Notes under the pieces: model-generated
What the model was told of the DNA's origin: nothing
The model's input: the letters and a program-made list of their open reading frames with translations, nothing else
Databases searched by the model: none
Translations under genes and position numbers: made by a program
Part shown: positions 1-45,365 of the stretch, piece after piece
How positions within the stretch are numbered: the stretch's first letter is position 1
Layout: each line of letters opens with the position of its first letter
From: a virus
IMG/VR virus record: IMGVR_UViG_3300049846_001717
Location: 34,056 to 98,055 of that record
Length of the DNA: 64,000 bases
Reading direction: 5' to 3' (one strand)

Positions 1-55
1 TTGAACCATCACTTATCGAAAGGTAATGAGCCTCTCAGTTGACATGTTCACCAGC
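1..55 (-). tRNA. tRNA with CAT anticodon (Met/Ile2), reduced D-arm, 3' end cut off by window edge
   Basis: revcomp GCTGGTG...GAGAGG-CTCATTA-CCTTTC...GATGGTTCAA. Confidence 0.5.
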
Positions 56-248
56 TGTGTGAACACCGCTTCTTCCAATTGAGCGACACCGGCATTTCTA
101 TTTCTTCTTTGCGACGTACTTGTGATTTGGATGAAACCACGTGCAGGCACACGGTTTACCAATCGTGCTATGACACTGACCTTCACTTAAGTGGTGATAT
201 TTGGCCGTATGACCACAATCACACTTCACGTTCTTTGGAATCGTCATA

Positions 249-331
249 TGCGGATGAAGGGAGTCGAACCCTTAACCTATTCAGTACTAGATCCTAAGTC
301 TAGCGCGTACTGCCAATCCCGCCACACCCGC
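249..331 (-). tRNA. tRNA-Leu(TAG)
   Basis: cloverleaf; anticodon arm CTAGA-CTTAGGA-TCTAG; long variable arm; GGTTCGACTCC. Confidence 0.93.
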
Positions 332-552
332 GTATCGTACGTTTTTGGTAGAACGTACAAACTATCCGAGAGATGCCCCTCCGGCCAATCCATTTTGACG
401 GAATGGATAAACCGTGTTGTTTCCCCGCTACCAAATGATGGTCCTGTCTATCGGATGCCTTGTCAGTGCGCCGTCATTACGGCGTGCGTCAGAATCGATG
501 AACGTTTCCTAGGACATTCATAAACCCCTCGGCCCTTACTCCTATAAGTATA

Positions 553-1935
553 CTACATCACCGCGTTTTTGGCAAGCCCCGGTCGATTTTTCAGTTTATT
601 CCGAAATCGAAATATTGGAGTTTGCTGTTCCACCGGGGTCGGTTCAACCGTGGTCGGTGGGGTTGCCACGAACTCGACGGGTTGAAGGGCTTCCGTTACC
701 GTATCTCGCATCATTATGAACAGTTCACCCTGTGCGGCCGCCATGCTGATCTCTCGTTCCTTGTACTTCTGGCTGAACCGTTCTGCGCCGTCGGTATCAC
801 CAGGAAAGAACTTCAAATAGAGCTTGACGAGTTGTTGCCGTGATGCGTTGTCCACCAGAATCCGTCGGTCAATGCGACCAGGTCGAATCAACGCCGGATC
901 CAAATGTTCGATATGGTTGGTGGTCATGATGATGATACGGGGCGAATCGGACACCATAACACCATCGATGGAATTCAAGACTTCACTGAACGAGGCCGTG
1001 CGCTTCTTTGGCGCGTCCTCTTTCTTATCACCAGAAGAGGGTTCGGGCTCTTCGTTCATCAAAATCGTTGACGACCGCGAACTCATACCCAACAACGTGG
1101 CGTCTACATCTTCAATCAAGAGGATGCTATTACCCGGCAAACTACTCAACGACACATCCATTTTCATCATCTGTTCCGACGTATATCGGCAGATGGTCAT
1201 ATTGAGTTCAGATGCCAACGTTCGAACCAACGTGGTTTTACCGTTGCCCGGCGGGCCATATAGGATGTAGCCGCGGCGAAATGGCACACCCAATCCCAAA
1301 TACCAATCTTTCTTTGCAAGAAACTGACGAATGTCTGTGGCCAACATGTCGATGGTATTGTTGTCATCGATGACCGTTTCCTTGCTTCGTTTTGCGGTAT
1401 ACCCGACGACCACCCATCCGTTTTGTGACGTCCATTGCATGACCGGAACCGTGTCCGTTCGCAACGATGCATTGTATGCATCCGTCATGTGTTTGAGAAA
1501 CGATTCCACAATCTTTCGACTGTTGCGACCCGTTCGGGCCAGATGGATCTTTCGAACTTCCATTGTCGATTCTTTATTGGCTTTTTCCGAGGAGAACGAC
1601 ACGAAGATTCGTTTTCCTTCATGAAGAATCTTGAACGAACCGGTTTTTGGACGAAGACGGGGCGTATAGACGTAGGTACCGTTTTTCTGTCGTGTGTAAT
1701 CCCATGTGGTGTTCATCACGTTGATCCGTCGATCCGTGTGATGATTATCGAAATACCAATTGACGACTACGCTGACTTCCAGTTCGGTCGAAAATCGAAA
1801 GTACGAGAATGCTCTAGACCAATATTTGCTAAACGTCGATTTTGCCAGTGTAACGGCCGTACCCATCAATCCAAGAACAAAGCCACCTTGGAACAGTGGA
1901 TTCTGCGTCAATCCTTCAAATAACGGTAACGTCAT
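553..1935 (-). CDS. BCS1-like membrane-anchored AAA+ ATPase
   Basis: N-terminal TM; RRGYILYGPPGNGKT Walker A; LLIEDVD Walker B; TTNHIEHLDPALIRPGRID SRH. Confidence 0.9.
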   Translation of the reverse strand: MTLPLFEGLTQNPLFQGGFVLGLMGTAVTLAKSTFSKYWSRAFSYFRFSTELEVSVVVNWYFDNHHTDRRINVMNTTWDYTRQKNGTYVYTPRLRPKTGSFKILHEGKRIFVSFSSEKANKESTMEVRKIHLARTGRNSRKIVESFLKHMTDAYNASLRTDTVPVMQWTSQNGWVVVGYTAKRSKETVIDDNNTIDMLATDIRQFLAKKDWYLGLGVPFRRGYILYGPPGNGKTTLVRTLASELNMTICRYTSEQMMKMDVSLSSLPGNSILLIEDVDATLLGMSSRSSTILMNEEPEPSSGDKKEDAPKKRTASFSEVLNSIDGVMVSDSPRIIIMTTNHIEHLDPALIRPGRIDRRILVDNASRQQLVKLYLKFFPGDTDGAERFSQKYKEREISMAAAQGELFIMMRDTVTEALQPVEFVATPPTTVEPTPVEQQTPIFRFRNKLKNRPGLAKNAVM

Positions 1936-2098
1936 TGGTCCGTGTGTGTAGGGTTTTCAAATTCAGGAGCACCAAGCTCTGCCGCGAATTCCGGATCCAC
2001 CGCGGCTAATTGTCGATGGGCCGACACTTGTAGGAATATTGACTCTCGTTCTTTTTCAGTCATATCGTCTACATCGATATATTTGATCATATCGAACA

Positions 2099-2245
2099 TT
2101 AGTAACAGCCACCACACCAACTTTGATGATAACTATGACGGTCTTCCCATTCAACCGGCCGTGGTGCCGGACGTCGTTCTCGGTATTCTGCAACCCGTCC
2201 ACACCCGGGACATTCGTATACCGTGATGAAGTACCAGCATTTCAC
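2099..2245 (-). CDS. small Cys-rich (Zn-ribbon-like) protein
   Basis: CPGC...CGGC; GTG start overlaps stop of upstream ORF. Confidence 0.5.
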   Translation of the reverse strand: MKCWYFITVYECPGCGRVAEYRERRPAPRPVEWEDRHSYHQSWCGGCY

Positions 2246-2397
2246 GGCTTTTGATGTTTGTTTTTGGGTCGATGATGACAGCTTGAACACTTTTCCCCCG
2301 GCCGTACTTTGGCCATATCACATGAACACCACTGACTTCGAGCACCTTTCGGGGTGGTTTTCTTCACCCGATTTTCTTTTTTGAGCGGATATTTCAT
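2242..2397 (-). CDS. 51-aa basic Cys-rich protein (below ORF-track cutoff)
   Basis: MKYPLKKENRVKK...WCSCD...KCSSC; translated by hand. Confidence 0.5.
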   Translation of the reverse strand: MKYPLKKENRVKKTTPKGARSQWCSCDMAKVRPGEKCSSCHHRPKNKHQKP

Positions 2398-2398
2398 A

Positions 2399-2472
2399 CG
2401 CCCCCGGCAGGATTCGAACCTGCACTAATGGAGATTAGAAGTCTCCCTGACTGTCCTGTTGCCGACGGGGGC
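2399..2472 (-). tRNA. tRNA-Arg(TCT)
   Basis: GGAGA-CTTCTAA-TCTCC; GGTTCGAATCC; begins immediately after release-factor stop codon. Confidence 0.92.
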
Positions 2473-3145
2473 TTATTGTAATAGTTCGAGTTGACCTCGG
2501 AGTACGTCTTTCAACCGGACTTTCTTATCCGATCGATGATCGGTGACGATACCGTCCTGTTCCCGATACGTTCGAATCTTATCGCCTCGCATTCCCGAAC
2601 CTACAAGCTGTTTGCGGTCACCATCGGCTTGCCGTTTCGATTGTTCGGCCATATACGTGGCTACTCGATGTTCCAACAGTTCACGAGCAGTACGACGATT
2701 CTGATGTTGACTCTTCTCTGCGGCTTTCGCTTCGATCTTTGTTGGTTCGTGCCGCATGATGACACATGATTCAGTCTTGTTACGATGTTGACCGCCGGGG
2801 CCGGAATCCTTAGTGGTAAACGTCGTAATGTCTGATTCCTTCAATCGCCATGACGCAGGTTCTTTGATCTCAAAGACGGCTACGGTGACGGTTGATGTGT
2901 GAACCCGACCACGACGTTCGGTGGGCGGAATACGTTGCCATCGATGACCACCTGATTCATTCATCAATAATCGGAGCTTTGAATCGGTGCCTTCGATGAT
3001 CAGGTCAAAGACTACCTCGGTTCTCCGAAATCACGGACGCGCCGAGACGAGAGGCAAACGACAGATAGATGTTGGCTTGGTTGGACACGAGCAGTTTTGC
3101 ATCAGTGCCACCTTCACCAGGTCGGATTTCTACGAGGTATTTCAT
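2473..3145 (-). CDS. class I peptide chain release factor, RF1-like (PxT), lacking domain 1; about 223 aa via programmed +1 frameshift at 3004-3010
   Basis: frame 0 (3145-3008) MKYLVEIRPGEGGTDAKLL...RGSL then TGA; +1 frame DLIIEG...NESGGHRWQRIPPTERRGRVHTS...SGPGGQHRNKTES...EKSQHQN...RGDKIRTY. Confidence 0.9.
3004..3019 (-). promoter_or_regulatory. prfB-type +1 ribosomal frameshift cassette
   Basis: CGAGGT-AGT-CTT-TGA-C: internal SD, 3-nt spacer, slippery CTT, UGA-C. Confidence 0.88.
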
Positions 3146-3167
3146 CGAAATTCTCATTAAAGGAAAG

Positions 3168-3244
3168 TGCTCCTAGTGGGACTCGAACCCACACTTGACG
3201 GCTTCTCGAACCGTTGACTCTGCCTGAGATTGGTCTACAGGAGC
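3168..3244 (-). tRNA. tRNA-Leu(GAG), short variable loop, C at position 33
   Basis: ACGGT-TCGAGAA-GCCGT; 5-nt variable loop; GGTTCGAGTCC. Confidence 0.75.
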
Positions 3245-3288
3245 ATTAATGTCGGTTTTGAGAGAACCGACAAACTCGTATGACTCGC

Positions 3289-3558
3289 TTAGGCGATCGT
3301 CCATTCGGAAATGGAGCGGCCCTTTGCAGCGGGACGGCTCGAGTACGTATACCCGACCTGTTCGAAGCCATTGCTGAATGCAGCATTGATGAAGCTCAAA
3401 CGAGTACGGACCTTCATTTCATCGATGCCGTTCTTGCCGAGGTAGTTGTGCGCGTCATCGGCCGTTACAACGCCCGACGAACGACGATTTGCGAGGCTAC
3501 GTAGATAGCCACGGAGGCCCGATACCATCTTTTCACGCTTCTGATTTGACATAGACAT
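3289..3558 (-). CDS. hypothetical basic protein
   Basis: ORF with AGGAG SD before ATG. Confidence 0.65.
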   Translation of the reverse strand: MSMSNQKREKMVSGLRGYLRSLANRRSSGVVTADDAHNYLGKNGIDEMKVRTRLSFINAAFSNGFEQVGYTYSSRPAAKGRSISEWTIA

Positions 3559-3665
3559 TAGTGTCTCCTTGATTACAATGTGAAGGTGATTCTCCACATC
3601 ATACCGAAAGATAGTTCACATGTCGTCTTCTGTCAAGTCGTTGATATTACCTAGATTGTAGACAA

Positions 3666-3739
3666 TGCACTCGGTGGGACTCGAACCCACAAGATTTCGC
3701 TTCTGAGACGAAAATGTCTGCCAATTGCATCACGAGTGC
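3666..3739 (-). tRNA. tRNA-Leu(CAG), short variable loop
   Basis: TTCGT-CTCAGAA-GCGAA; 5-nt variable loop. Confidence 0.85.
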
Positions 3740-3742
3740 GTA

Positions 3743-3816
3743 TAGCGCTTATGGGAATCGAACCCATCATCAACTGATTGAAAGTCAGTGGTCCAGAACC
3801 GATAGACGGAAGCGCC
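3743..3816 (-). tRNA. tRNA-Glu(TTC)
   Basis: ACTGA-CTTTCAA-TCAGT. Confidence 0.92.
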
Positions 3817-3887
3817 GTGCAGGGTTGTTGTTCGCTAGTCATCGGCCGATGGCATCGCTCCCGCCAGTAACTCCCCAAACTGGCTCA

Positions 3888-3959
3888 TAGCTCTAACGGG
3901 AATCGAACCCGTCTTTGCGCCTTGAGAGGGCGCCGTCCTCGCCGATAGACGATAGAGCC
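3888..3959 (-). tRNA. tRNA-Glu(CTC)
   Basis: GCGCC-CTCTCAA-GGCGC. Confidence 0.94.
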
Positions 3960-3975
3960 ATACATTAATACATAG

Positions 3976-4050
3976 TCGAAGTGGCGAGATTTGAACTCGC
4001 ATGATGTCCTGTATCCGAAACAGGCGACTTGCCAATTAGTCCACACTTCG
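3976..4050 (-). tRNA. tRNA-Pro(CGG)
   Basis: CCTGT-TTCGGAT-ACAGG; C1:G72. Confidence 0.9.
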
Positions 4051-4346
4051 ATTTGGTGTAATAAACCATCCGGCGGCGAATTCTGCCCCACAACCACCGA
4101 CGCTAGACCGAGAGGAGTTGCCATGCCGTAGGTAAAGAATCTCGGATCTCCCACGAGTTTAGCTGAGCACCCGGCATTGGGAGTGGACTAAGTTGCCCGT
4201 ATCGAAGGCGAGAAACTGGATTCGACCGACACGACCTCGGTATACAGTGACTAACGCGTGCTAAACTCGTATCCATTGCATGTTTCTGCGGTCTTCATAT
4301 CTACTACACCAATTACTTGGAAACTTCAAACGTTATTCCAAATAAG

Positions 4347-4421
4347 TCGGAGTGGTGAGAATCGAACTCACTCGAATACCCTGATTCCAAGTCAGGGAGG
4401 CTCCCGGCGCCTTTCACTCCG
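4347..4421 (-). tRNA. tRNA-Pro(TGG)
   Basis: CCTGA-CTTGGAA-TCAGG. Confidence 0.88.
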
Positions 4422-4498
4422 ATACTACTCTAGATAGATCTTCACTACTTCTCCGATATTCCGCCTCGGGCAATGTCGCCTCGGTACCGTGCGTTCCG

Positions 4499-5185
4499 CT
4501 ATGCCGCATCCTCGTGAAGATCAAAATCGGACTCCAACATCGCTGCGCCGTACTTATTCTGCATTTTCGGATTTCGGGAGTTGTCCTTGTTGTGCTGACT
4601 CCATCCCATCGACTTGCTGACCTTCCCGTACAGACCACCCTTGAAAATCTTGTTGTGCAACTCCTGGTGCCGGCTATCGTAGGTCGTGTCCGGAATCCAA
4701 TGATGGGTGATGATGTTCGGCGTGATCGCCAACACGAACCAATAGTCATGTTTGACGAAGTAGCCTTTCTTGTCGATCTTTTTCTTGTACGGAAATCCGA
4801 CGTAGTCGGACCACTCACGATATTGAAAATACGACTTCAACTTCTCGCTCAGCGATTCGTATTTCTCGACTGTGATCCATCCCAACTTCTGGTTCCGAGG
4901 TTCCAACTGGCCGGTACGCCAGTTCATCCACAGAAAATCCTCACGACGCGAGAACTGATCGCTGTTGACCAAATCCAACGCCTGCCGAATGTCTCGAGCA
5001 TCCGTGCGATTGCGGATGTCTTCCCGCAACACGAATCGCCGTGTCCATCCGTTCTGATAATGCTCCACCGGTTCCCAGTGTCCTGCGCTTTCGTCACGCG
5101 CCCATCGGTTTCGGCGCGTCTTTTCGTACTCCGCCCACAACTTCCGCAACTTCTTTTCTTCTTCGTCCTTATGTGTACGTTTCAT
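4499..5185 (-). CDS. hypothetical protein within tRNA array
   Basis: about 228-aa ORF with GAGG SD. Confidence 0.75.
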   Translation of the reverse strand: MKRTHKDEEEKKLRKLWAEYEKTRRNRWARDESAGHWEPVEHYQNGWTRRFVLREDIRNRTDARDIRQALDLVNSDQFSRREDFLWMNWRTGQLEPRNQKLGWITVEKYESLSEKLKSYFQYREWSDYVGFPYKKKIDKKGYFVKHDYWFVLAITPNIITHHWIPDTTYDSRHQELHNKIFKGGLYGKVSKSMGWSQHNKDNSRNPKMQNKYGAAMLESDFDLHEDAA

Positions 5186-5203
5186 AGAACCTCGTAAAGA
5201 AAG

Positions 5204-5277
5204 TGCCAACTCTCGGAATCGAACCGAGCCATGCGGCTCTTCAGACCGCCGTTCCGCACCACGTAAACTTAGTTGGC
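5204..5277 (-). tRNA. tRNA-Phe(GAA)
   Basis: GCGGT-CTGAAGA-GCCGC. Confidence 0.9.
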
Positions 5278-5493
5278 TTGGAGCGGGACCGGCTTTTCAT
5301 TCCGTCAAGGGCTCCCGCTGGACCTGTATATGTGAATGATGGGCGGTCTTTTGACGGGCCGTTCACAAGAGGCGCCCTGAATCTCGTTACTGAGCCGATT
5401 TCACCCATCAAAATGGTGTTCGTATGGTAGTCGGGACCACGCATAGTGGGCATCGGTCATCCTCCCACAGCTAATCACTACCATACGAACAAG

Positions 5494-5570
5494 TCCGCCC
5501 AGTAGGAGTTGAACCTACGTGCAACCAACTAGCCTTTCTACCGTGTATCAGACGGAGGGCATATGGGCGG
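5494..5570 (-). tRNA. D-armless tRNA-Ile(GAT)-like RNA
   Basis: acceptor CCGCCCA/TGGGCGG; CCGT-CTGATAC-ACGG; T-arm GTAGG-TTCAACT-CCTAC; D-arm replaced by TATGCCCT. Confidence 0.75.
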
Positions 5571-5626
5571 TTATCTGAGTTACATGCGGATATACTTCAA
5601 TCTACTACGATCCATCTTGTGTGGCA

Positions 5627-5699
5627 AGCTCCCACCCGGTTCTGACCCGGGCTCTCTGCTTTACCAAAGCAGAATGTCAACCACGATCACTATAGGAGC
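5627..5699 (-). tRNA. tRNA-Thr(GGT), atypical T-loop
   Basis: CTGCT-TTGGTAA-AGCAG; T-loop GTCAGAA. Confidence 0.82.
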
Positions 5700-5718
5700 G
5701 TTCGTGAAACCATTGTAA

Positions 5719-5790
5719 AGCTCCATATGGGAGTTGAACCCATTTATCCCGCTTACGAGGCGGGTACATCACCCTTTATGCTTATGGAGC
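5719..5790 (-). tRNA. tRNA-Thr(CGT)
   Basis: CCCGC-CTCGTAA-GCGGG. Confidence 0.92.
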
Positions 5791-5863
5791 ATGTGGCTGT
5801 GAGATTTTGCACGTTCCCACATTTACTCTCCTCGACTGCTTCTTCGGAGTACCATCGAACCGC

Positions 5864-6000
5864 GGGCGTGTTCTGCCATTGAACTATATGTGTACGAGAA
5901 GCTGGGCACGGACTGGCACTAAGTATTCCATATTATTCCACACCGCGTGGCACCGTCTTCAAACTACTCATACGAGGAATTGAACCTCGATCTCACCCTC
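5864..6000 (-). ncRNA. circularly permuted tRNA-like RNA (YrlA/Y-RNA-like topology)
   Basis: T-arm and 3' acceptor strand precede 5' acceptor strand and D-arm. Confidence 0.6.
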
Positions 6001-6001
6001 A

Positions 6002-6074
6002 CGCTAACGGTCAGATTCGAACTGACGGCATCCTCATTACAAGTGAGGTGCATTGGCCTCTATGCTACGTTAGC
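6002..6074 (-). tRNA. tRNA-Thr(TGT)
   Basis: CCTCA-CTTGTAA-TGAGG. Confidence 0.93.
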
Positions 6075-6077
6075 AAG

Positions 6078-6153
6078 TCGGCCCGACTGGAGTTGAACCA
6101 GTGTGCACCGTCTAACCTTTCAACCGCTTATCAGGCGGAGGGTATACGGGCCG
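6078..6153 (-). tRNA. D-armless tRNA-Ile(GAT)-like RNA, second copy
   Basis: acceptor CGGCCCG/CGGGCCG; CCGC-CTGATAA-GCGG; D-arm replaced by TATACCCT. Confidence 0.75.
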
Positions 6154-6300
6154 GTAGCCGCCTTTTACTGTGGGCCTTCCCACACCGGCTCATGGCCGGA
6201 GGTACTCTACGGTTGCCTAATTGGTTGAATGTGGCCAGGTCACTGATACGTAGGCACAGCCCTTTCGGGCATCAATACGCACTTCCTCACTGCACATTCA

Positions 6301-6374
6301 TGGACACCACGGGAATCGAACCCGTCACATCGTCATTGCGAATGACAATCGCCACCCTTGGTACATTGGCGCCC
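6301..6374 (-). tRNA. tRNA-Ala(CGC)
   Basis: TGTCA-TTCGCAA-TGACG; G3:U70. Confidence 0.88.
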
Positions 6375-6444
6375 GAGCCCGCAACCGGCGATGTCCCGGC
6401 GAGTTGACCTCCCTTCAACTCTTTCATGCGGCGGATTATTTCAA

Positions 6445-6566
6445 CGGCGATGGCAGGATTCAAACCTGCATTCGTGTAACTCAAAGCGCTTTGAGAAAGA
6501 CCATACGGCCACCATGCATAGCAACCGAACGTTCGAACCACGTCTTATCAGTTAGATGACACCGCC
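6445..6566 (-). ncRNA. tRNA-like RNA with about 60-nt insertion in place of anticodon loop
   Basis: acceptor GGCGGTG/CATCGCC; D-arm-like segment; T-arm GCAGG-TTTGAAT-CCTGC. Confidence 0.6.
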
Positions 6567-6569
6567 AAA

Positions 6570-6640
6570 TGGACCGAGTGGGAATCGAACCCACGAGTGC
6601 GCCATGCCATGGCGCCAGTTTCCCGTTAGCTTACCGGCCC
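6570..6640 (-). tRNA. tRNA-Ala(GGC)
   Basis: GCGCC-ATGGCAT-GGCGC; G3:U70. Confidence 0.92.
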
Positions 6641-6660
6641 GAACAATGCTTCTAATTTCA

Positions 6661-6731
6661 TGGACCCGGGGAGAATCGAACTCCCATTATCTCGGTGCAA
6701 GCGAGATGTCCTCCCATTAAACGACGGGCCC
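6661..6731 (-). tRNA. tRNA-Ala(TGC)
   Basis: TCTCG-CTTGCAC-CGAGA; G3:U70. Confidence 0.93.
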
Positions 6732-6838
6732 AAATATCTAAACAAACTGGACTGCCTTGTGGAACACCAGTCCGCCCTCCATGTTATTTTTCTCGACTTT
6801 CATCGGCCACCTATTGATGGGGCAATCCATTTAGACAA

Positions 6839-6913
6839 CGCACCGTAGAGGAATCGAACCTCTCTATCACTGTTTAACAGACAGTCGTAATCTACCAGAC
6901 ATACCAACGGTGC
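6839..6913 (-). tRNA. tRNA-Asn(GTT)
   Basis: ACTGT-CTGTTAA-ACAGT. Confidence 0.88.
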
Positions 6914-6940
6914 ATAATTCATTACATTTTCTACGGTTAA

Positions 6941-7021
6941 ATCACCGGGTGGGAATTGAACCCACGTAGGCTTGCGCCACTGATTAACAGTCAGTTGCCT
7001 GAACCATTAGGCTACCGGTGA
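6941..7021 (-). tRNA. tRNA-Asn(GTT) with long variable arm
   Basis: ACTGA-CTGTTAA-TCAGT followed by GGC-GCAA-GCC variable hairpin. Confidence 0.82.
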
Positions 7022-7324
7022 GTAACTACCTCTTGACCCCATTAAACGATTCGGTTCTAAACCGAGGGAACTCTTGCGAGAAGAAGTACAGATCGTGTGT
7101 CGTGTGTAAATGGTGGACCCTGGGATTTCTCAATCCCACAAGTAACGTAACCTCGGGACACGACTCCCATTACGGTGCTTGACATGAAACATTCTTGGAG
7201 CCCTTAATTCATGTGTCGTGCGACAGTGGAGGCCCGTGTTCAACCTACTTCAAGGCACGACCCTTGATACAGTGATTGACTCGGTCTTGTAAAATCTTCT
7301 TAGGACTCTACACACAGGCCATAT

Positions 7325-7396
7325 AACCGCACTCGGATTCGAACCGAGATTCAGAGGGTCAAAGCCTCTTGTCCTAAACCGTTGGACGATGCGGCA
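7325..7396 (-). tRNA. tRNA-Gln(TTG)
   Basis: AGAGG-CTTTGAC-CCTCT. Confidence 0.92.
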
Positions 7397-7397
7397 G

Positions 7398-7470
7398 TTG
7401 CTCTTCTAGGGATCGAACCTAGAGTTTCCTGGGTCAGAGCCAGGCGTGTTGCCAGTTACACTAAAGAGCA
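7398..7470 (-). tRNA. tRNA-Gln(CTG)
   Basis: CCTGG-CTCTGAC-CCAGG. Confidence 0.92.
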
Positions 7471-7793
7471 AAATGTTCTTTTCTATGACAGTTGGAACAT
7501 AGTACAATACATTTTTCAACTTCTTGTAAAATTCTTGTCTTACCCCACGATCCCGCAGAAACCATTGATCCGATGTTACCGTGTTTAATGTTTGGATCTG
7601 TATGATGAAAATCTAGACATGCCGGATGTGATTCGGGGCATCGTTCACATTTCAATGTAGACTTGAATTGTTTCCACCATTCTTGCATTTCCTTACGACG
7701 GGTCTGTTTTCTTTGCAAGTACGAATCTTTATTGTTCAGATAATGTTGTTTGTTATACTGATCTTTCTGTTTTTTGGACCACTTATTTGACAT
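7461..7793 (-). CDS. HNH endonuclease
   Basis: CERC...LDFHH...CIVLCSNCHRKEH; GGAG SD before ATG at 7793; stop overlaps tRNA-Gln 5' end. Confidence 0.85.
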   Translation of the reverse strand: MSNKWSKKQKDQYNKQHYLNNKDSYLQRKQTRRKEMQEWWKQFKSTLKCERCPESHPACLDFHHTDPNIKHGNIGSMVSAGSWGKTRILQEVEKCIVLCSNCHRKEHFAL

Positions 7794-7860
7794 AATACTC
7801 TCCAATTTTGAGAGGTTGTTATGTATAAGTAGTCTGACCCAAACAGTTTCAGTCAGATAA

Positions 7861-8046
7861 TTACAACTCACTACATGGGATACAGAATGGTGCTGCGACC
7901 TGACGTTTCTTTTCTTCATCGAATCCAACGTCAATGAATTCGATTTTGTCTTCCGGGATGAAATCCGAACAGTTGACGCAAATCCACGAAATCTGTGATT
8001 TACCGTTTTCGATGACCTGCTTCACATTGCGTTTACGAACCAACAT
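7861..8046 (-). CDS. small Zn-ribbon protein
   Basis: CVNC...CIPC. Confidence 0.55.
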   Translation of the reverse strand: MLVRKRNVKQVIENGKSQISWICVNCSDFIPEDKIEFIDVGFDEEKKRQVAAPFCIPCSEL

Positions 8047-8070
8047 ACGACCTTTCTACGTTAAAGTTGA

Positions 8071-8146
8071 TACCAGTGATGGGTGCCGACCCCATTTCAA
8101 TTCCGCTTATGAGGCGGACGCCGATGCCGACCGGCTTCCCACTGGC
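8071..8146 (-). tRNA. tRNA-Met/Ile2(CAT), atypical T-loop
   Basis: TCCGC-CTCATAA-GCGGA; T-loop GTCGGCA. Confidence 0.75.
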
Positions 8147-8183
8147 GTAATGCTATTCCACCCAGGGTATTGCAGAGTAACAG

Positions 8184-8263
8184 TGGTGTGGGAGGGATTC
8201 GAACCCACAGGCCGAAGCGCCGGTTTTACAGACCGGTGTTAATTCCAACATAACTTCCACACC
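8184..8263 (-). tRNA. tRNA-Tyr(GTA)
   Basis: CCGGT-CTGTAAA-ACCGG; variable arm. Confidence 0.9.
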
Positions 8264-8692
8264 ATAGATATGTGAGTGCAGTCTCGTTCACCAGTTCCCT
8301 GCACTTTCGTTTCACACGTTACGTCACTACAAAGAGTGATGGATTTTGTTTTCTCACGTTCTCAGAGGAGTATCAGTCCTCTGAGTGCTAAGACATATGA
8401 CACAACCTACTCTCTAGAATTCCTTTGTGCCACTTCCGGTTCCATCAACCGGTCGTCTTGTGTGTTGAATTACGTGGTGATGATCCCTCGTTACGAATCG
8501 CACGTAACATTGCAATTTAGATGAGTCGCCACCGTCAATCAACTAGTATGTACGCTGAAAGTGGCCAGCATTTATTTGGTCTGCACATTTAAGACTCTCG
8601 CCCAAACTACTTCCCGGCCTTTGCCGCCTTACGGGTATCTCCGGTTTTCGCCTCATCACCTAGTCATTGCCCAGGTATACTACGTAATTCAA

Positions 8693-8766
8693 GGGTGATA
8701 TACCGGTATCGATCCGGTACTCGCGGAGTCACAGTCCACTGTGCAGGCCACTACACTAATATCACC
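8693..8766 (-). tRNA. tRNA-His(GTG)
   Basis: GTGGA-CTGTGAC-TCCGC; G-1:C73. Confidence 0.9.
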
Positions 8767-8877
8767 ATAGGTGCAACCCCTAGGCCATCAGTTATTCACC
8801 GGCTGGGATGACTCCGCGCAGTGCCGGTCCAGATGCTCTCGTTGTCAGGGTTGCTGGAGAGCCCACGCTATGCTACA

Positions 8878-8951
8878 TGCTTCGGCTGAGATTCGAACTC
8901 AGAAGACTTCCGATTAAGAGTCGGATGCTTTACCTGATAAGCTTACGAAGC
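8878..8951 (-). tRNA. tRNA-Lys(CTT)
   Basis: TCCGA-CTCTTAA-TCGGA. Confidence 0.92.
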
Positions 8952-8990
8952 GTAGGAAGGTTGTTTACGGTCTAACCTACAAAGACCACA

Positions 8991-9064
8991 TGCCTCGGGT
9001 GGGACTCGAACCCACAACTTACCGCTTAAAAGGCGGCTACTCTGCGCTATTGAGTTACCAAGGC
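8991..9064 (-). tRNA. tRNA-Lys(TTT)
   Basis: GCCGC-CTTTTAA-GCGGT. Confidence 0.93.
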
Positions 9065-9068
9065 GTTA

Positions 9069-9140
9069 TGCTTCCGGCCGATCCTGACACGGCAACGTGC
9101 TGTTTAAAAGACAGCTGTGATTCCTTTTCACCACGGAAGC
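9069..9140 (-). tRNA. tRNA-Lys(TTT), atypical T-arm
   Basis: GCTGT-CTTTTAA-ACAGC; T-loop GTCAGGA. Confidence 0.75.
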
Positions 9141-9346
9141 GCTGGTGCCTCAATGTCGCGGTCACGTTGAGGCGCCGTGAGTGTGCAATATTGCATTTCT
9201 GGGACCGCTCACACACGGTCGTGCAATACTGTCCGCTGCTTCTTCGATTAACCAGTTTTGATGCCCGAAATAAATCCGACGTTCGTTATAGGAACGTTCG
9301 GGAAGCAGACTATCGACCTGAACAGAAGTCGGCTCGTACTGCCTAA

Positions 9347-9418
9347 TGCCCACGGAAAGATTCGAACTTTCTCGGAGAGTTTCGTAGACTCTAATGCTAT
9401 CCGTTACATCACGAGGGC
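9347..9418 (-). tRNA. tRNA-Arg(ACG)
   Basis: AGAGT-CTACGAA-ACTCT. Confidence 0.92.
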
Positions 9419-9500
9419 GTTGACGGTGTTTAGTGTGGTTCGCCGTCACCACTCAATATACAACATCTGTCTTCAGTTGTCAAGTAGCAAACTTCAAAAG

Positions 9501-9586
9501 CGGAAACGATAGGAATTGAACCTACAAGTGCTTATTAGGCACCGACTGTTTTCGAGACAGCTTATCGCACCAATGATCGCGTTTCC
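9501..9586 (-). tRNA. tRNA-Ser(CGA)
   Basis: GCTGT-CTCGAAA-ACAGT; long variable arm; G73. Confidence 0.9.
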
Positions 9587-9700
9587 AGATTGCAGCAACA
9601 AGCACCAACTTTGTATGCATCCGGTGTGCATACCCTTTAATTCGGCTCCCGTCAGGGGTTGGTTAAAGCTCGACGCCCTCCCCATTCTTGTTACTACAAA

Positions 9701-9787
9701 CGGAAAGTAAGGGATTCGAACCCTTTCCCCGAATTAACGGGGCTGGTTTAGCAAACCAGTGTAGCGCACCGACTCTACCGACTTTCC
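9701..9787 (-). tRNA. tRNA-Ser(GCT)
   Basis: CTGGT-TTGCTAA-ACCAG; long variable arm; G73. Confidence 0.9.
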
Positions 9788-9839
9788 TTCGCCCGAAGAG
9801 GGACTTTCACCCTCTCTTTCCGTTCGGGCAGGACGGAAG

Positions 9840-10004
9840 TTACTTTGTAGCTACCCGTTCTGCGTGCTGACACGCTTTACGATATGCCTCTACGGCTCGT
9901 TTGATTCGTTTTACATCTTCCGGCTTTGCAAACTCGTCGATCATCGTATAGATTTTCTTACGCGCCACAACTGCCTTATGTACTGCCTGCTCTCCGGCGG
10001 TCAT
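9840..10004 (-). CDS. 54-aa hypothetical helical protein (below ORF-track cutoff)
   Basis: GAGG SD; MTAGEQAVHKAVVARKKIYTMIDEFAKPEDVKRIKRAVEAYRKACQHAERVATK. Confidence 0.65.
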   Translation of the reverse strand: MTAGEQAVHKAVVARKKIYTMIDEFAKPEDVKRIKRAVEAYRKACQHAERVATK

Positions 10005-10019
10005 ACAACCTCATTAAGT

Positions 10020-10102
10020 TGGAGTCCAGAACGAGTTGCGGTCATGAGCCTTCTCGTATCTCCGCTCGATGGAGCGGTATTCTTCATTTAAACTATCCGG
10101 AC
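10020..10102 (-). ncRNA. aberrant tRNA-like element (expanded T-loop, shortened anticodon loop, CCA end)
   Basis: acceptor GTCCGGA/TCTGGAC-TCCA; CCGCTC/GAGCGG; ACGAG-17nt-CTCGT. Confidence 0.5.
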
Positions 10103-10103
10103 A

Positions 10104-10175
10104 TACCCTCGGAGGGAATTGAACCCCCTATACTTGGTTCGAAGCCAAGCGTGATATCCGGTCCACTGCGAGGGC
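10104..10175 (-). tRNA. tRNA-Arg(TCG)
   Basis: CTTGG-CTTCGAA-CCAAG. Confidence 0.9.
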
Positions 10176-10213
10176 GTAGTTTGTTACACTTTGATCAAAA
10201 CGTTCACCTACAA

Positions 10214-10288
10214 CATGTCCGACAGGATTCGAACCTGCAACAACTCGTTTTGGAGGCGAGCACCATTAGCCAGTTTGGTTCCGGACAT
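10214..10288 (-). tRNA. tRNA-Trp(CCA)
   Basis: CTCGC-CTCCAAA-ACGAG; GGTTCGAATCC. Confidence 0.85.
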
Positions 10289-10524
10289 ATACTACGATGG
10301 GAGGCGGGCTGGGCACGGGCCGTCAATCGATGCGTCCATCGACGGTGAGCATTCGCGAAAATACTCACTTCCCGATATTAGTTTGTAACGTACAACACCG
10401 TCCCGACACTCCACTAACTTTGAGACGCGTCCACACTCGGACCACAAGGCATAGCTGGGGTCGCATCGCCTTGACGGGGAGTAGGCACCCCGTTCTCGTC
10501 TCCACTGCGGATCTTACGATCCAG

Positions 10525-10600
10525 AGCCGCTAACCGGATTCGAACCGGTACTTCTACATTGGCAATGTAGCGTGCTCAATCCGTTGAACACTATAACGAC
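10525..10600 (-). tRNA. tRNA-Gly(GCC)
   Basis: CTACA-TTGCCAA-TGTAG. Confidence 0.9.
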
Positions 10601-10607
10601 TTACTTA

Positions 10608-10679
10608 CGGTGTATGCGGGTATCGATCCCGCTTCCTTCCCGTGACAGGGGAAGATCCTAGCCAGTAGACGAATACACC
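10608..10679 (-). tRNA. tRNA-Asp(GTC)
   Basis: TTCCC-CTGTCAC-GGGAA; G73. Confidence 0.92.
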
Positions 10680-10687
10680 AACGTATC

Positions 10688-10738
10688 AAAAAACAAGAAA
10701 CCCCATTCACGGTTTTCAAGGCCGGTGAAGGGGGTTTC
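10688..10738 (-). terminator. intrinsic terminator between leader ORF and tRNA array
   Basis: GAAACCCC-C-TTCAC...GTGAA-T-GGGGTTTC followed by TTGTTTTTT. Confidence 0.85.
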
Positions 10739-10762
10739 GGGAAAACTTCGGGCGGTTACTGC

Positions 10763-10885
10763 TTAGTTTGCGCCGCCACCCATCCCATCCCCTTCGATTG
10801 TATCTTCAATACTGCGCGTACCGAAGGCTTGCTTCGATGCGGGCATTGTATTGACTTTATACTGCCAAGTGGTATGGGTAAACAT
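10763..10885 (-). CDS. putative 40-aa attenuator leader peptide
   Basis: MFTHTTWQYKVNTMPASKQAFGTRSIEDTIEGDGMGGGAN; AGGA SD; stop about 25 nt before terminator. Confidence 0.65.
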   Translation of the reverse strand: MFTHTTWQYKVNTMPASKQAFGTRSIEDTIEGDGMGGGAN

Positions 10886-10966
10886 AGGGAAATCCTAGGA
10901 GTTGGGTGATTCTGGACTATACATAGTGAGCACGTTCAGAAAACGGTCACTTTCTTCATATGGTGA

Positions 10967-10995
10967 AGTCTAACACATCGGCCGCCGTTTGGCAA
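10967..10995 (-). promoter_or_regulatory. sigma70-type promoter for leader/tRNA array
   Basis: TTGCCA-17nt-TAGACT. Confidence 0.6.
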
Positions 10996-11012
10996 GCGTC
11001 AGTTTTAACTAG

Positions 11013-11085
11013 TTGGCCCGGAGGGATTTGAACCCCCGCACTTTCCATTATGAGTGGACCGCTCTGACCGCTGAGCTACGGGCCA
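11013..11085 (-). tRNA. tRNA-Met/Ile2(CAT)
   Basis: TCCA-CTCATAA-TGGA; canonical D and T arms. Confidence 0.9.
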
Positions 11086-11088
11086 ATA

Positions 11089-11451
11089 TCACCCGATTGG
11101 AATATTCGGGGATTTGGATTTGAGTACGTCAATGACACGATCAAAGCCCCATCGACCGAACATGATGCCACAACATAGGAACAACAACCAGAACATCGGC
11201 CAGGTCCAGACCTCATCCATATTACGAACAGACCGAACGATGCCGGTAAACAACACCGTACATGAAATGCCAAATGCCATCATTTTCGTCGCACTGGGCC
11301 GCCCATCAGTTCCGAGCAGGTCCGCGAGGGCCAAGATTTGACGCCATCGGGCGTAGATCCATCGAAACACCGGACCGCCACGACTATATGGTCGTTGTAC
11401 GGAAGGTACTTCAATGGTCTGTTGTCCAACTGGTCGATAGGTCACGTTCAA
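11089..11451 (-). CDS. small two-TM membrane protein (holin-like possible)
   Basis: two hydrophobic segments. Confidence 0.6.
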   Translation of the reverse strand: MNVTYRPVGQQTIEVPSVQRPYSRGGPVFRWIYARWRQILALADLLGTDGRPSATKMMAFGISCTVLFTGIVRSVRNMDEVWTWPMFWLLFLCCGIMFGRWGFDRVIDVLKSKSPNIPIG

Positions 11452-11489
11452 CTCCCGTGTGGGGAATGTAACCGACTATGACCGTTTTA

Positions 11490-11580
11490 TACTCCCGGTG
11501 GGACTCGAACCCACATATTGCGTATCTCAGACGCTGACCGTATCATAAGTACGGGGGCTTAACCATTAACCGACAGGAGC
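11490..11580 (-). tRNA. tRNA-Ile(TAT) with long variable arm
   Basis: CCGTA-CTTATGA-TACGG; variable hairpin GCGT-CTGAGAT-ACGC. Confidence 0.82.
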
Positions 11581-11652
11581 GTACATCCATAAGTATACCC
11601 TATGGATGATTATTTGGCAAGCGTGGATTTTCTAGCCATGTCCAGCTTGTCA

Positions 11653-13275
<1,623 letters not shown>

Positions 13276-13322
13276 TTAGAAACCTTTGAGGGAAGTAATA
13301 CTGAAATCTATATTACCAGTTG

Positions 13323-13688
13323 TTATCTGGCAAGAGCAGTGATGTATTCGAACTGTGCTTTGTTTTCGATAATCACCGTTCGCTGCTTTACATCGAACTT
13401 CATCGGAAACAATTCACCTGACGGCACAACGATGGTAGTTCGGGCTTTCGTTGGTCGAGATACCTTGTTATTTCGTCGATATTTGTAGTAACTACTCTTC
13501 ATCGTTGCAATTCGCTTCGTCTTGTTGTCTTCCGAAACGTTATAGAGACCTGACTTGACTGGATTGTTGAGAATGCCGGTGACGAATTTATCGACTACGT
13601 CTTCGACTGATTGATTATCAGCCCGCGCATCCACCAACTTGTAAATCACATCCATATCTTCGTGAGCAACTCTTGGCTTCTTTTTCAT
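13323..13688 (-). CDS. hypothetical protein
   Basis: ORF in co-oriented run; not GroES. Confidence 0.65.
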   Translation of the reverse strand: MKKKPRVAHEDMDVIYKLVDARADNQSVEDVVDKFVTGILNNPVKSGLYNVSEDNKTKRIATMKSSYYKYRRNNKVSRPTKARTTIVVPSGELFPMKFDVKQRTVIIENKAQFEYITALAR

Positions 13689-13701
13689 TGAAATGATTGG
13701 A

Positions 13702-14037
13702 TTAAGGGAATTCTAGCAGATAGTGACGCAGTCGATGGCACGTTGCACATCGTAGTTCACACTTGTCGAGTTCTTTCTTGAGTTCTTCCCATCGGAAGAT
13801 GTACTTACCACTGATCTTGAATTCTTTTACCGTGGGATCCATATGGTCAAAATCGTAACAGACCGGATGGAAGGTTTTCTTGCAGTCCACGCAGATGCCG
13901 CCGAGATAAGCAACGGCTTTGATTTTGACCTCGGCGGACCTTGTAGCTTTGATACAGGTCGAACATTTGACACGAGTGTCGTGGTACTTGGGCTTAGGAA
14001 TGTATTCCTTGCCACAATCACATCGATATAGTTTCAT
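13702..14037 (-). CDS. HNH endonuclease
   Basis: YLGGICVDC...YDFDH...ELDKCELRCATCHRLRH. Confidence 0.85.
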   Translation of the reverse strand: MKLYRCDCGKEYIPKPKYHDTRVKCSTCIKATRSAEVKIKAVAYLGGICVDCKKTFHPVCYDFDHMDPTVKEFKISGKYIFRWEELKKELDKCELRCATCHRLRHYLLEFP

Positions 14038-32055: not shown

Positions 32056-32366
32056 GCGTCTACTCCGTTGGGGATATGGAGAATATAGGGGATTGAGCCG
32101 ATAAGGCAATACCCACGAATTTTCGTTACAATCGACGGCGGATCACGACTCGGCCGCATCCCGAAGGTCGTAGGCCGCGTGCCACAGCTTGTACAGGTCC
32201 ACCATCGACGGAATATTCCGCAGATTCATATAGCCGAGAACACCCTCGACGATCACCGTACTATACGAGCCTGCCTCGAGTCCCTCGTACACTTGACCGC
32301 TCATGAACACGACGGCGAAGAAATTGATGCCGCAGGTCACGGCGTAGACATAGGGTTGCCATCGCA

Positions 32367-44783: not shown

Positions 44784-45365
44784 TGCGGCTCCATGTGGGT
44801 ACGACAGAAATCTATATCAATGATTATGGAAGTCAAGCGATTGTTACAATCGACGGGAAAACCAAATGGGCCATCCTCCGTATTCCAGAGGATGACCCAT
44901 ATCGCTGAATCGGGCGGGCCCATGGTCCCATTTCGTCCATCACTGGCCCGACACTCTAGCGTGGCGACACCGCTGTTCCATCCTAGCCACATCACATTGT
45001 CCCCGTGGGACAAATCCCATGGCTTCGGTTTGCCGTGAAACCCGACACCGACCTTGCGCCATCGATTTATATACCGATATGGGCATTAGCGGTGACAATC
45101 TTGTGTCACTCGACTTCGATCCAACATCGCTTTACCCACTACCTCGATCCGTCGGCTACGAGGGGCTCATCGGTTCCCACACTACAAGTATATAGCGGTG
45201 ACGCAGGGAAGTCAAGCGGTCGTTACAATCGACGGAAAGTGAAACGGGACGCTTCCCCGGATGAGGTAGAAGCGCCCCGACTGATTTGGCCGATCAGTTT
45301 ATCCGTTTCGTGGATTAGTCGTCGGAGTCATTCGCTATCGCAGGGCGACTCGGGAAGTAAACCCA

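Follow-up and report, generated by a model that had tools for sequence, protein, structure and literature searches.

Regulation of the dozens of tRNA genes carried by large phages is almost unknown, and the locus described here raises the question of whether a short transcription unit embedded in such an array controls the tRNA genes behind it and, if so, how many of them. The sequence analyzed (the window, 64,000 nt) makes up the right-hand 64 kb of an IMG/VR virus record of 98 kb, whose completeness is estimated at 45%. The record encodes rIIA, GroEL, a BCS1-like ATPase and a split release factor, and carries about 48 tRNA genes on the minus strand between window coordinates -6900 and 11580. 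A preliminary description had presented the spacer between tRNA-Met and tRNA-Asp as an attenuator in which a promoter, a 40-codon ORF and a strong intrinsic terminator precede tRNA-Asp and about 34 more tRNAs. Many tRNAs do follow, but our count is about 29 for the downstream part of the window and about 45 for the complete record. The promoter, the ORF and the terminator are all present in the spacer:

11085-11012, minus strand: tRNA-Met, upstream border of the 331-nt spacer
10967..10995, minus strand: predicted sigma-70-type promoter, TTGCCA (10995-10990), 17-nt spacer and TAGACT (10972-10967), with a TG-extended -10 and a predicted start near 10960
10886..10960, minus strand: 5' untranslated region of about 75 nt, carrying AGGA
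10763..10885, minus strand: ORF40, 40 codons plus TAA, from the ATG at 10885; AGGA at 10896-10893, 7 nt before the ATG
10688..10738, minus strand: predicted intrinsic terminator; 5' arm 10738-10722, loop 10721-10713, 3' arm 10712-10697, U-run 10696-10688
10680-10607, minus strand: tRNA-Asp(GTC), downstream border of the spacer

Promoter copies and the extent of the gated block

The 10995 promoter is one of a family. TTGCCA-N17-TAnAnT occurs five times in the window against 0.06 copies expected, and TTG[AC]CA-N17-TA[GT]A[CT]T has eight exact copies, all on the minus strand of the tRNA/GroEL region and always with a 17-nt spacer (13333, 11620, 10995, 9483, 5627, 575, -3378 and -7607, the last two being genome positions 30677 and 26448). 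The copy at 13333 drives GroEL, while the remaining ones split the array into blocks of 2, 6, 13, 9, 12, 5 and 1 tRNAs. For four of the six other block-heading copies, the first tRNA lies 5-63 nt away. Copies 575 and -3378 are followed by gaps of 209 and 472 nt, in which neither an ORF nor a terminator was found. The copy at 10995, with a gap of 280 nt to its first tRNA, is the only one with both an ORF and a terminator in between.

A second sequence, GTCGATTGTAAC, is confined to the protein-coding part and absent from the tRNA array. Twenty exact copies and one variant were found between window positions 32125 and 61671, all on the minus strand, against 0.56 expected, and each copy adjoins a downstream -35 (TTGACT or TTGCCA) and a TATATT -10. 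This element putatively represents a further promoter class, larger than the first, or else a binding site for a regulator.

The terminator ahead of tRNA-Asp is the strongest terminator-like site on the minus strand across 26 kb and one of four canonical terminators in the record. Its hairpin (10738-10697, -19.3 kcal/mol) is followed by the U-run TTGTTTTTT (10696-10688), and tRNA-Asp begins 8 nt further on with no promoter of its own; neither inspection by eye nor a scan revealed a promoter between the terminator and tRNA-Asp. The two terminators of the protein-coding part, at 44900 and 40406, each have a second-class promoter (GTCGATTGTAAC plus TTGACT) within about 40 nt after them, which makes a terminator between a promoter and promoterless cargo unusual in this phage. 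The terminator at the end of the array (genome 26255-26228) also adjoins a promoterless gene.

The DNA that the 10688-10738 terminator could gate is bounded by the next promoter copy:

9500..10680, minus strand: gated block of six tRNAs and ORF54, with no promoter copy inside
10680-10607, minus strand: tRNA-Asp(GTC)
10600-10525, minus strand: tRNA-Gly(GCC)
10289-10213, minus strand: tRNA-Trp
10175-10104, minus strand: tRNA-Arg(TCG)
10004-9840, minus strand: ORF54, 54 codons, gene-like codon usage
9787-9701, minus strand: tRNA-Ser(GCT)
9586-9500, minus strand: tRNA-Ser(CGA)
9455..9483, minus strand: next promoter copy, TTGACA-17-TATATT, heading an independent 13-tRNA block

Control of the whole array had been proposed, with the proviso that internal promoters driving it independently would speak against the idea. 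Exact promoter copies lie downstream at 9483, 5627, 575 and -3378, with 13, 9, 12 and 5 tRNAs behind them, so that most of the array does have internal promoters and the leader unit could gate at most six tRNAs and one small ORF. Whichever reading of the unit is adopted, a single switch for the whole array does not hold.

The array has several other peculiarities. Its final unit (genome 26448-26220; window -7607 to -7835) consists of a promoter copy, a tRNA-Ser(TGA) with a long variable arm, which was read by hand and falls below the Rfam threshold, and a terminator of -15.2 kcal/mol; the GGAGG and ATG of a GDIHG (metallophosphatase-like) gene lie 5 nt past the U-run. The release-factor gene is divided into two minus-strand ORFs (window 3005-3157 and 2473-2967), the N-terminal piece containing EIRPGEGGTDA and the other the end of the PCRF domain and the RF-1 domain, with a tRNA (3168-3244) directly upstream. 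The tRNA-Gly(GCC) at 10525-10600 (minus strand), which has two G-U pairs in its acceptor stem, scored 49.5 bits with Rfam and was missed by ARAGORN. A weak match to the Rfam wcaG RNA (324-416, minus strand; 28.9 bits, the gathering score being 42; E = 0.046) sits in the structured 209-nt gap between promoter 575 and tRNA-Leu.

ORF40 and the predicted folds of its transcript

The length of ORF40 is unremarkable, as 25% of shuffled spacers contain an equally long ORF. Its codon-usage score (0.151, compared to 0.193 ± 0.131 for real in-frame windows) is matched by 0.4% of ORFs in shuffled DNA and by none of 21 plus-strand ORFs, and the codon usage is gene-like in frame 0 only. The AGGA motif occurs at the same spacing before rIIA (54803) and other genes of this phage. 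Judging from these sequence features, ORF40 is probably translated. Among the small minus-strand ORFs of the array, five are gene-like and about 20 are not; the five include one genuine piece of the release-factor gene. Gene-like codon usage was also seen for the minus-strand ORFs 9840-10004, 1932-2099 and 6287-6427 (54, 55 and 46 codons), the last of which overlaps an ARAGORN 'tRNA' (6301-6396) with an odd four-base anticodon, so that one of these two calls is probably wrong. The region 10886-10960 has no structure above that of shuffles (z = -0.31). A 7-codon mini-ORF, MKKVTVF (10936-10959, minus strand), begins at the predicted transcript start and could be leaderless or a product of chance.

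The ORF40 peptide indeed uses 18 of the 20 amino acids, lacking C and L; this breadth, pointed out in the preliminary description, is reached by 8.6% of the 40-residue windows of this phage's proteins. As had been noted there, ORF40 contains no run of a single regulatory codon. The six gated tRNAs read 9 of 39 codons, which is no enrichment over the 19% background (P = 0.32), and D, G, W, R and S residues taken together show no excess either (12 of 39 against 26%, P = 0.32).

Three elements of the transcript, in addition to the terminator, enter the predicted folds:

10865..10879, minus strand: segment 1, codons 3-7; partner of segment 2 in the minimum-energy fold of the full-length RNA
10783..10795, minus strand: segment 2, GAAGGGGATGGGA, codons 31-35; its partner is either segment 1 or the terminator 5' arm
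10750..10781, minus strand: hairpin H (GGGTGG / CCGCCC), with the TAA stop in its loop; top of the antiterminator stem

The complementarity reported between GAAGGGG (10795-10789) and CCCCTTC (10733-10727) is real, and this pairing occurs in the nascent RNA's minimum-energy fold. The pairings are also mutually exclusive as claimed, the alternatives 1:2, 2:3 and 3:4 all existing in predicted folds. When the nascent RNA extends to 10740, segment 2 (10795-10783) is paired with segment 1 (10879-10865). Once the RNA ends at 10722 or 10716, segment 2 pairs instead with TCCCG (10742-10738) and CCCCTTC (10733-10727), and segment 2 and hairpin H (-13.1 kcal/mol alone) then extend into a long antiterminator hairpin of -25.9 kcal/mol alone. 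With the 3' arm present, the terminator conformer is favored at equilibrium by about 13 kcal/mol. The antiterminator forms in the model even in the absence of a ribosome, which implies that the logic would be one of termination when translation keeps pace rather than that of the trp scheme. The stop codon of ORF40 lies 24 nt from the terminator 5' arm.

ORF40 itself contains a long hairpin of -27.3 kcal/mol. The unit as a whole folds better than its shuffles (z = -3.17), whereas without the terminator z is only -1.8 to -2.0. Across positions 1-14000, Rfam returned tRNA-type matches and weak sub-threshold ones only, and no Rfam covariance model, including those for T-boxes, riboswitches and phage RNAs, matched within 10681-11011 at E ≤ 1.

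Ribosome position, chance expectation and relatives

Hiding of the terminator 5' arm was compared, with no ribosome on the RNA, with what shuffled or natural upstream sequences achieve, and 23-31% of these hide the arm equally well. This test is powerless, given that five real Escherichia coli attenuators score no better than shuffles in it. It was replaced by one in which a 28-nt ribosome footprint was masked at each codon of ORF40. With the ribosome on codons 1-3, pairing of the 5' arm contributed a stabilization of -12 to -13 kcal/mol; the values were -7 to -10 kcal/mol in mid-ORF and -4 to -5 kcal/mol with the footprint on codons 29-37. A footprint at the stop codon, which leaves segment 2 uncovered, barely weakens the pairing (-6.7 compared to -7.1 kcal/mol). 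Controls were shuffles, natural phage segments set before the same arm, and 32 ordinary ORF-terminator pairs from unrelated loci:

Early minus late: -6.1 kcal/mol, reached by 0 of 90 shuffles, 1 of 90 natural phage segments and 0 of 32 ORF-terminator pairs
First two-thirds minus last third: -4.1 kcal/mol, reached by 0 of 178 controls
Range across positions: 7.9 kcal/mol, reached by 3-8% of controls
Minimum: -12.0 kcal/mol, reached by 7-23% of controls
Minimum minus at-stop: -5.3 kcal/mol, reached by 3-11% of controls
First two-thirds minus at-stop: -2.4 kcal/mol, reached by 8-19% of controls

The smallest of these chance figures are optimistic because the early and late windows were picked after the profile had been seen. 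Folding with and without a footprint, the check suggested at the outset, thus gave a divided answer: pairing is stronger with an early ribosome and weaker with a late one, but chance matches this in anything from 0-1% to about 30% of cases depending on the statistic. When E. coli leaders were profiled in the same way, thrL and ilvL behaved like ORF40, hisL and leuL gave weak profiles and trpL none; the metric therefore has low power, detecting only one or two of five known attenuators.

ORF40 is known in three near-identical variants of 40, 40 and 41 residues, namely ORF40 itself and two relatives found as protein only. Their first 33 residues are identical in all three, while the last 7-8 differ (GMGGGAN, GMGGGYA and VGTQGGSF). 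Since the neighboring 120-residue protein is 98-99% identical in the three ORF40-bearing relatives (1-2 residues differing), the variable tail (10763-10786) is a local hotspot. The G-rich tract concerned has GGGAT repeats and codes for a portion of segment 2 and hairpin H. No homologue of ORF40 was found in Pfam, PHROGs or the ESM Atlas, nor among longer proteins. An exhaustive phmmer search returned its own cluster and a single further protein (P0020), a 1114-residue metagenomic protein made of tandem repeats of about 20 residues (AS.EAFGT.S[LI][ED]). Residues 16-35 of ORF40 (ASKQAFGTRSIEDTIEGDGM, 10781-10840) resemble this repeat with E = 6.6e-5 summed over seven repeats; single repeats reach only about 20-25 bits each, and P0020 was set aside as a relative because the resemblance is probably due to chance.

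ORF120 (11089-11451, minus strand), which is flanked by tRNA-Ile and tRNA-Met, encodes a small membrane protein with two helices, a member of a conserved family to which no Pfam or PHROG entry corresponds. Its 13 relatives in metagenomes share 47-98% identity, with DLLG.DGRPS.TK and MFWxLFLC..MFGRWGFDR nearly invariant. Searches for a comparable locus gave little. A blastn of 10400-11700 against 50,697 phage records returned tRNA matches only. No syntenic locus was found in IMG/VR with the ORF120 protein or its family profile, nor in GTDB genomes; GroEL retrieved 80 IMG/VR loci, none of the 32 checked having a tRNA array, and the BCS1-like ATPase gave one unrelated giant-virus match. JGI metagenomes yielded one distant locus, L083, which lacks the ORF40 cassette; a tRNA remnant and an HNH-like ORF lie downstream of its ORF120 homologue, in a region that is rearranged altogether. 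The HNH-like ORF of L083 (1413-1848) comes immediately after the ORF120 homologue, and an HNH endonuclease ORF is also found within the tRNA array of our record (7461-7934, minus strand; PHROG E = 7e-23). Together, these ORFs point to homing-endonuclease-driven mosaicism of such arrays.

Readings of the leader unit and comparison with known systems

Our tentatively favored reading of the unit is that of a promoter-proximal attenuator which serves a six-tRNA operon and whose action is coupled to ORF40 translation. It is the likeliest of the explanations weighed here, an ordinary small-gene cassette with a leaky terminator being nearly as likely. Under attenuation, the terminator would throttle transcription into tRNA-Asp, tRNA-Gly, tRNA-Trp, tRNA-Arg(TCG), ORF54, tRNA-Ser(GCT) and tRNA-Ser(CGA), for transcripts initiated at the 10995 promoter and at the two upstream promoters alike. 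The G-rich last third of ORF40 and the stop-codon hairpin would pair with the C-rich 5' arm to form the antiterminator. A ribosome keeping pace with the polymerase on codons 29-40 would melt this structure and let the terminator form, while a ribosome lagging or stalled in the first codons would free segment 2 from segment 1, so that the antiterminator persists and the polymerase reads through. The output would be more of the six tRNAs when translation is slow. The parts of this model lie in the DNA and its alternative folds are predicted ones; from these we infer the translation of ORF40, the kinetics and the effect on read-through. The leader and its switchable terminator could then conceivably act as a gauge of ribosome speed, a lag calling up six phage tRNAs as feedback on part of the supply, a role that we regard as possible though doubtful.

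Several observations argue for attenuation. Within its family, only the promoter at 10995 is separated from its first tRNA by an ORF and a terminator, and terminators elsewhere are followed at once by a new promoter, whereas here a promoterless tRNA comes after 8 nt. ORF40 has gene-like codon usage and the usual ribosome-binding site, and its length is held at 40-41 codons in the three variants despite their differing tails. Synthesis of the 5' arm changes the nascent fold from 1:2 to 2:3 pairing. The directional footprint statistics, the thrL/ilvL-like profile and the 24-nt stop-to-arm distance point the same way. Against attenuation stand the chance level of 23-31% without a ribosome and of 3-19% with the less tailored statistics, the advantage of the terminator conformer at equilibrium, the slight effect of a footprint at the stop codon and the low power of the metric. 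Codons of the gated tRNAs are not enriched, the gene-like composition would suit an ordinary small protein equally well, and the array-end terminator likewise adjoins a promoterless gene. The designation of the unit as established trp/his-type geometry was too strong: the layout and the exclusive pairings are borne out in silico, but there are no regulatory codons and the chance level depends on the statistic. As its codons do not match the gated tRNAs, the unit is not a member of the trp/his type and at most resembles a general stalling sensor.

The nearly equal contender is a self-contained 'moron' cassette, in which a promoter, ORF40 and a terminator have been inserted between tRNA-Met and tRNA-Asp; the terminator would also end the GroEL / tRNA-Ile / ORF120 / tRNA-Met transcripts, the six tRNAs would live on constant leakage and the pairing would be fortuitous. 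A promoter and a terminator of its own flank ORF40, and the cassette is missing from L083, where, however, the region is wholly rearranged and holds a tRNA remnant and an HNH-like ORF instead. The gene-like codon usage and usual ribosome-binding site, the lack of regulatory codons, a pairing within the chance range in several tests, the mosaic nature of the region downstream of ORF120 and the occurrence of ORF40 in near-identical relatives only are all consistent with such an insertion. Under this reading, however, the block of six intact tRNAs would be alone in lacking a working promoter, and the position-dependent pairing was matched by none of the 32 ordinary ORF-terminator pairs. A C-terminal tail that varies among relatives whose neighboring protein is 98-99% identical would be odd for a functional protein, and the peptide has neither a homologue nor a family match.

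The other explanations dispense with ORF40 as a switch or ask more of it. If the terminator were a timing barrier, early host-polymerase transcripts would end there and an antitermination factor of phage or host origin, or an unrecognized promoter type, would later express the six tRNAs, ORF40 being uninvolved. Two distinct promoter classes imply programmed transcription, the array-end terminator also abuts a promoterless gene, and regulators may lie outside a record that is about 45% complete; yet we recognized no antiterminator gene and, with Rfam over 1-14000, no antiterminator RNA, the array strand has no T4-type late promoter, and a promoter placed 270 nt ahead of the terminator would be left unexplained, making this explanation unlikely. 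A structured non-coding RNA of about 270 nt with its own promoter and terminator, in which the ORF is incidental, would agree with the z of -3.17 for the whole unit, with the -27.3 kcal/mol hairpin in the ORF and with the structured look of other array spacers. The drop in z once the terminator is removed, the gene-like codon usage in frame 0 only and the lack of an Rfam match speak against it, and we consider it quite improbable. Least probable by our estimate is the original proposal of a pan-tRNA 'codon sampler' that switches on some 34 replacement tRNAs after host anticodon nucleases have cut tRNAs. It draws on the general support for attenuation and on the breadth of the peptide's amino acid usage; the latter is reached by 8.6% of ordinary 40-residue windows, and the four exact promoter copies downstream head blocks of their own. 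The counter-defence circuit built on it rests on no evidence, as nothing ties the unit to anti-phage defence or counter-defence.

If the attenuation that we tentatively favor is true, classical attenuation would reach beyond amino-acid genes to tRNAs themselves, and a phage would prove able to adjust part of its decoding capacity to the condition of the cell it infects. If the unit is only a leaky small-gene cassette, the map of eight promoter-headed blocks and the second promoter class with its 21 copies remain useful. Our literature search found no paper on leader-peptide attenuation of phage tRNA genes, nor on such control of tRNA genes.

The general plan of a promoter, a short ORF (here predicted), an intrinsic terminator and then structural genes is that of the thrL, ilvL, leuL, trpL and hisL attenuators. 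As in these enterobacterial systems, three mutually exclusive pairings are predicted here; the stop-to-arm distance of 24 nt compares with 21-22 nt in thrL, leuL and ilvL, and footprint masking gives a profile like that of thrL or ilvL. Unlike them, the phage leader has no run or enrichment of regulatory codons, the genes to be regulated are tRNAs and not biosynthetic enzymes, and without translation one would expect read-through, not super-attenuation. The predicted leader is also long, at about 270 nt including 75 nt of 5' untranslated sequence.

Units delimited by a promoter and a terminator are found in phages as the morons of lambdoid phages and in the T5 tRNA region, and a moron's terminator normally insulates it from neighbors that have their own expression. 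Like a moron, the phage unit has a small gene set between a promoter and a terminator of its own; it differs in that its terminator stands directly before six tRNAs without another promoter.

Leader ORFs that respond to stalling in general precede vmlR in Bacillus subtilis (PMC9226507), msrD (10.1101/2021.11.29.470318), topAI-yjhQ in E. coli, where the leader is toiL (PMC12121999), and hflXr in Listeria (PMC6310831). There, as here, a slowed ribosome on a short upstream ORF, and not the shortage of a single amino acid, is proposed to induce genes that aid translation. Those leaders act on bacterial protein genes in response to particular antibiotics or arrest contexts, whereas ORF40 has no known arrest motif, its cargo is six phage tRNAs and its link to stalling is inferred.

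In Anabaena PCC 7120, a long and normally silent tRNA array, the trn operon, is induced under translational stress; control acts on the promoter, where the repressor TrcR binds direct repeats (PMC8421152, PMC10272220). The terms 'attenuat', 'leader' and 'terminator' are absent from the main text of the 2021 paper on this operon. The likeness to the phage unit is that of an accessory tRNA array whose expression is tied, in our case by proposal, to impaired translation.
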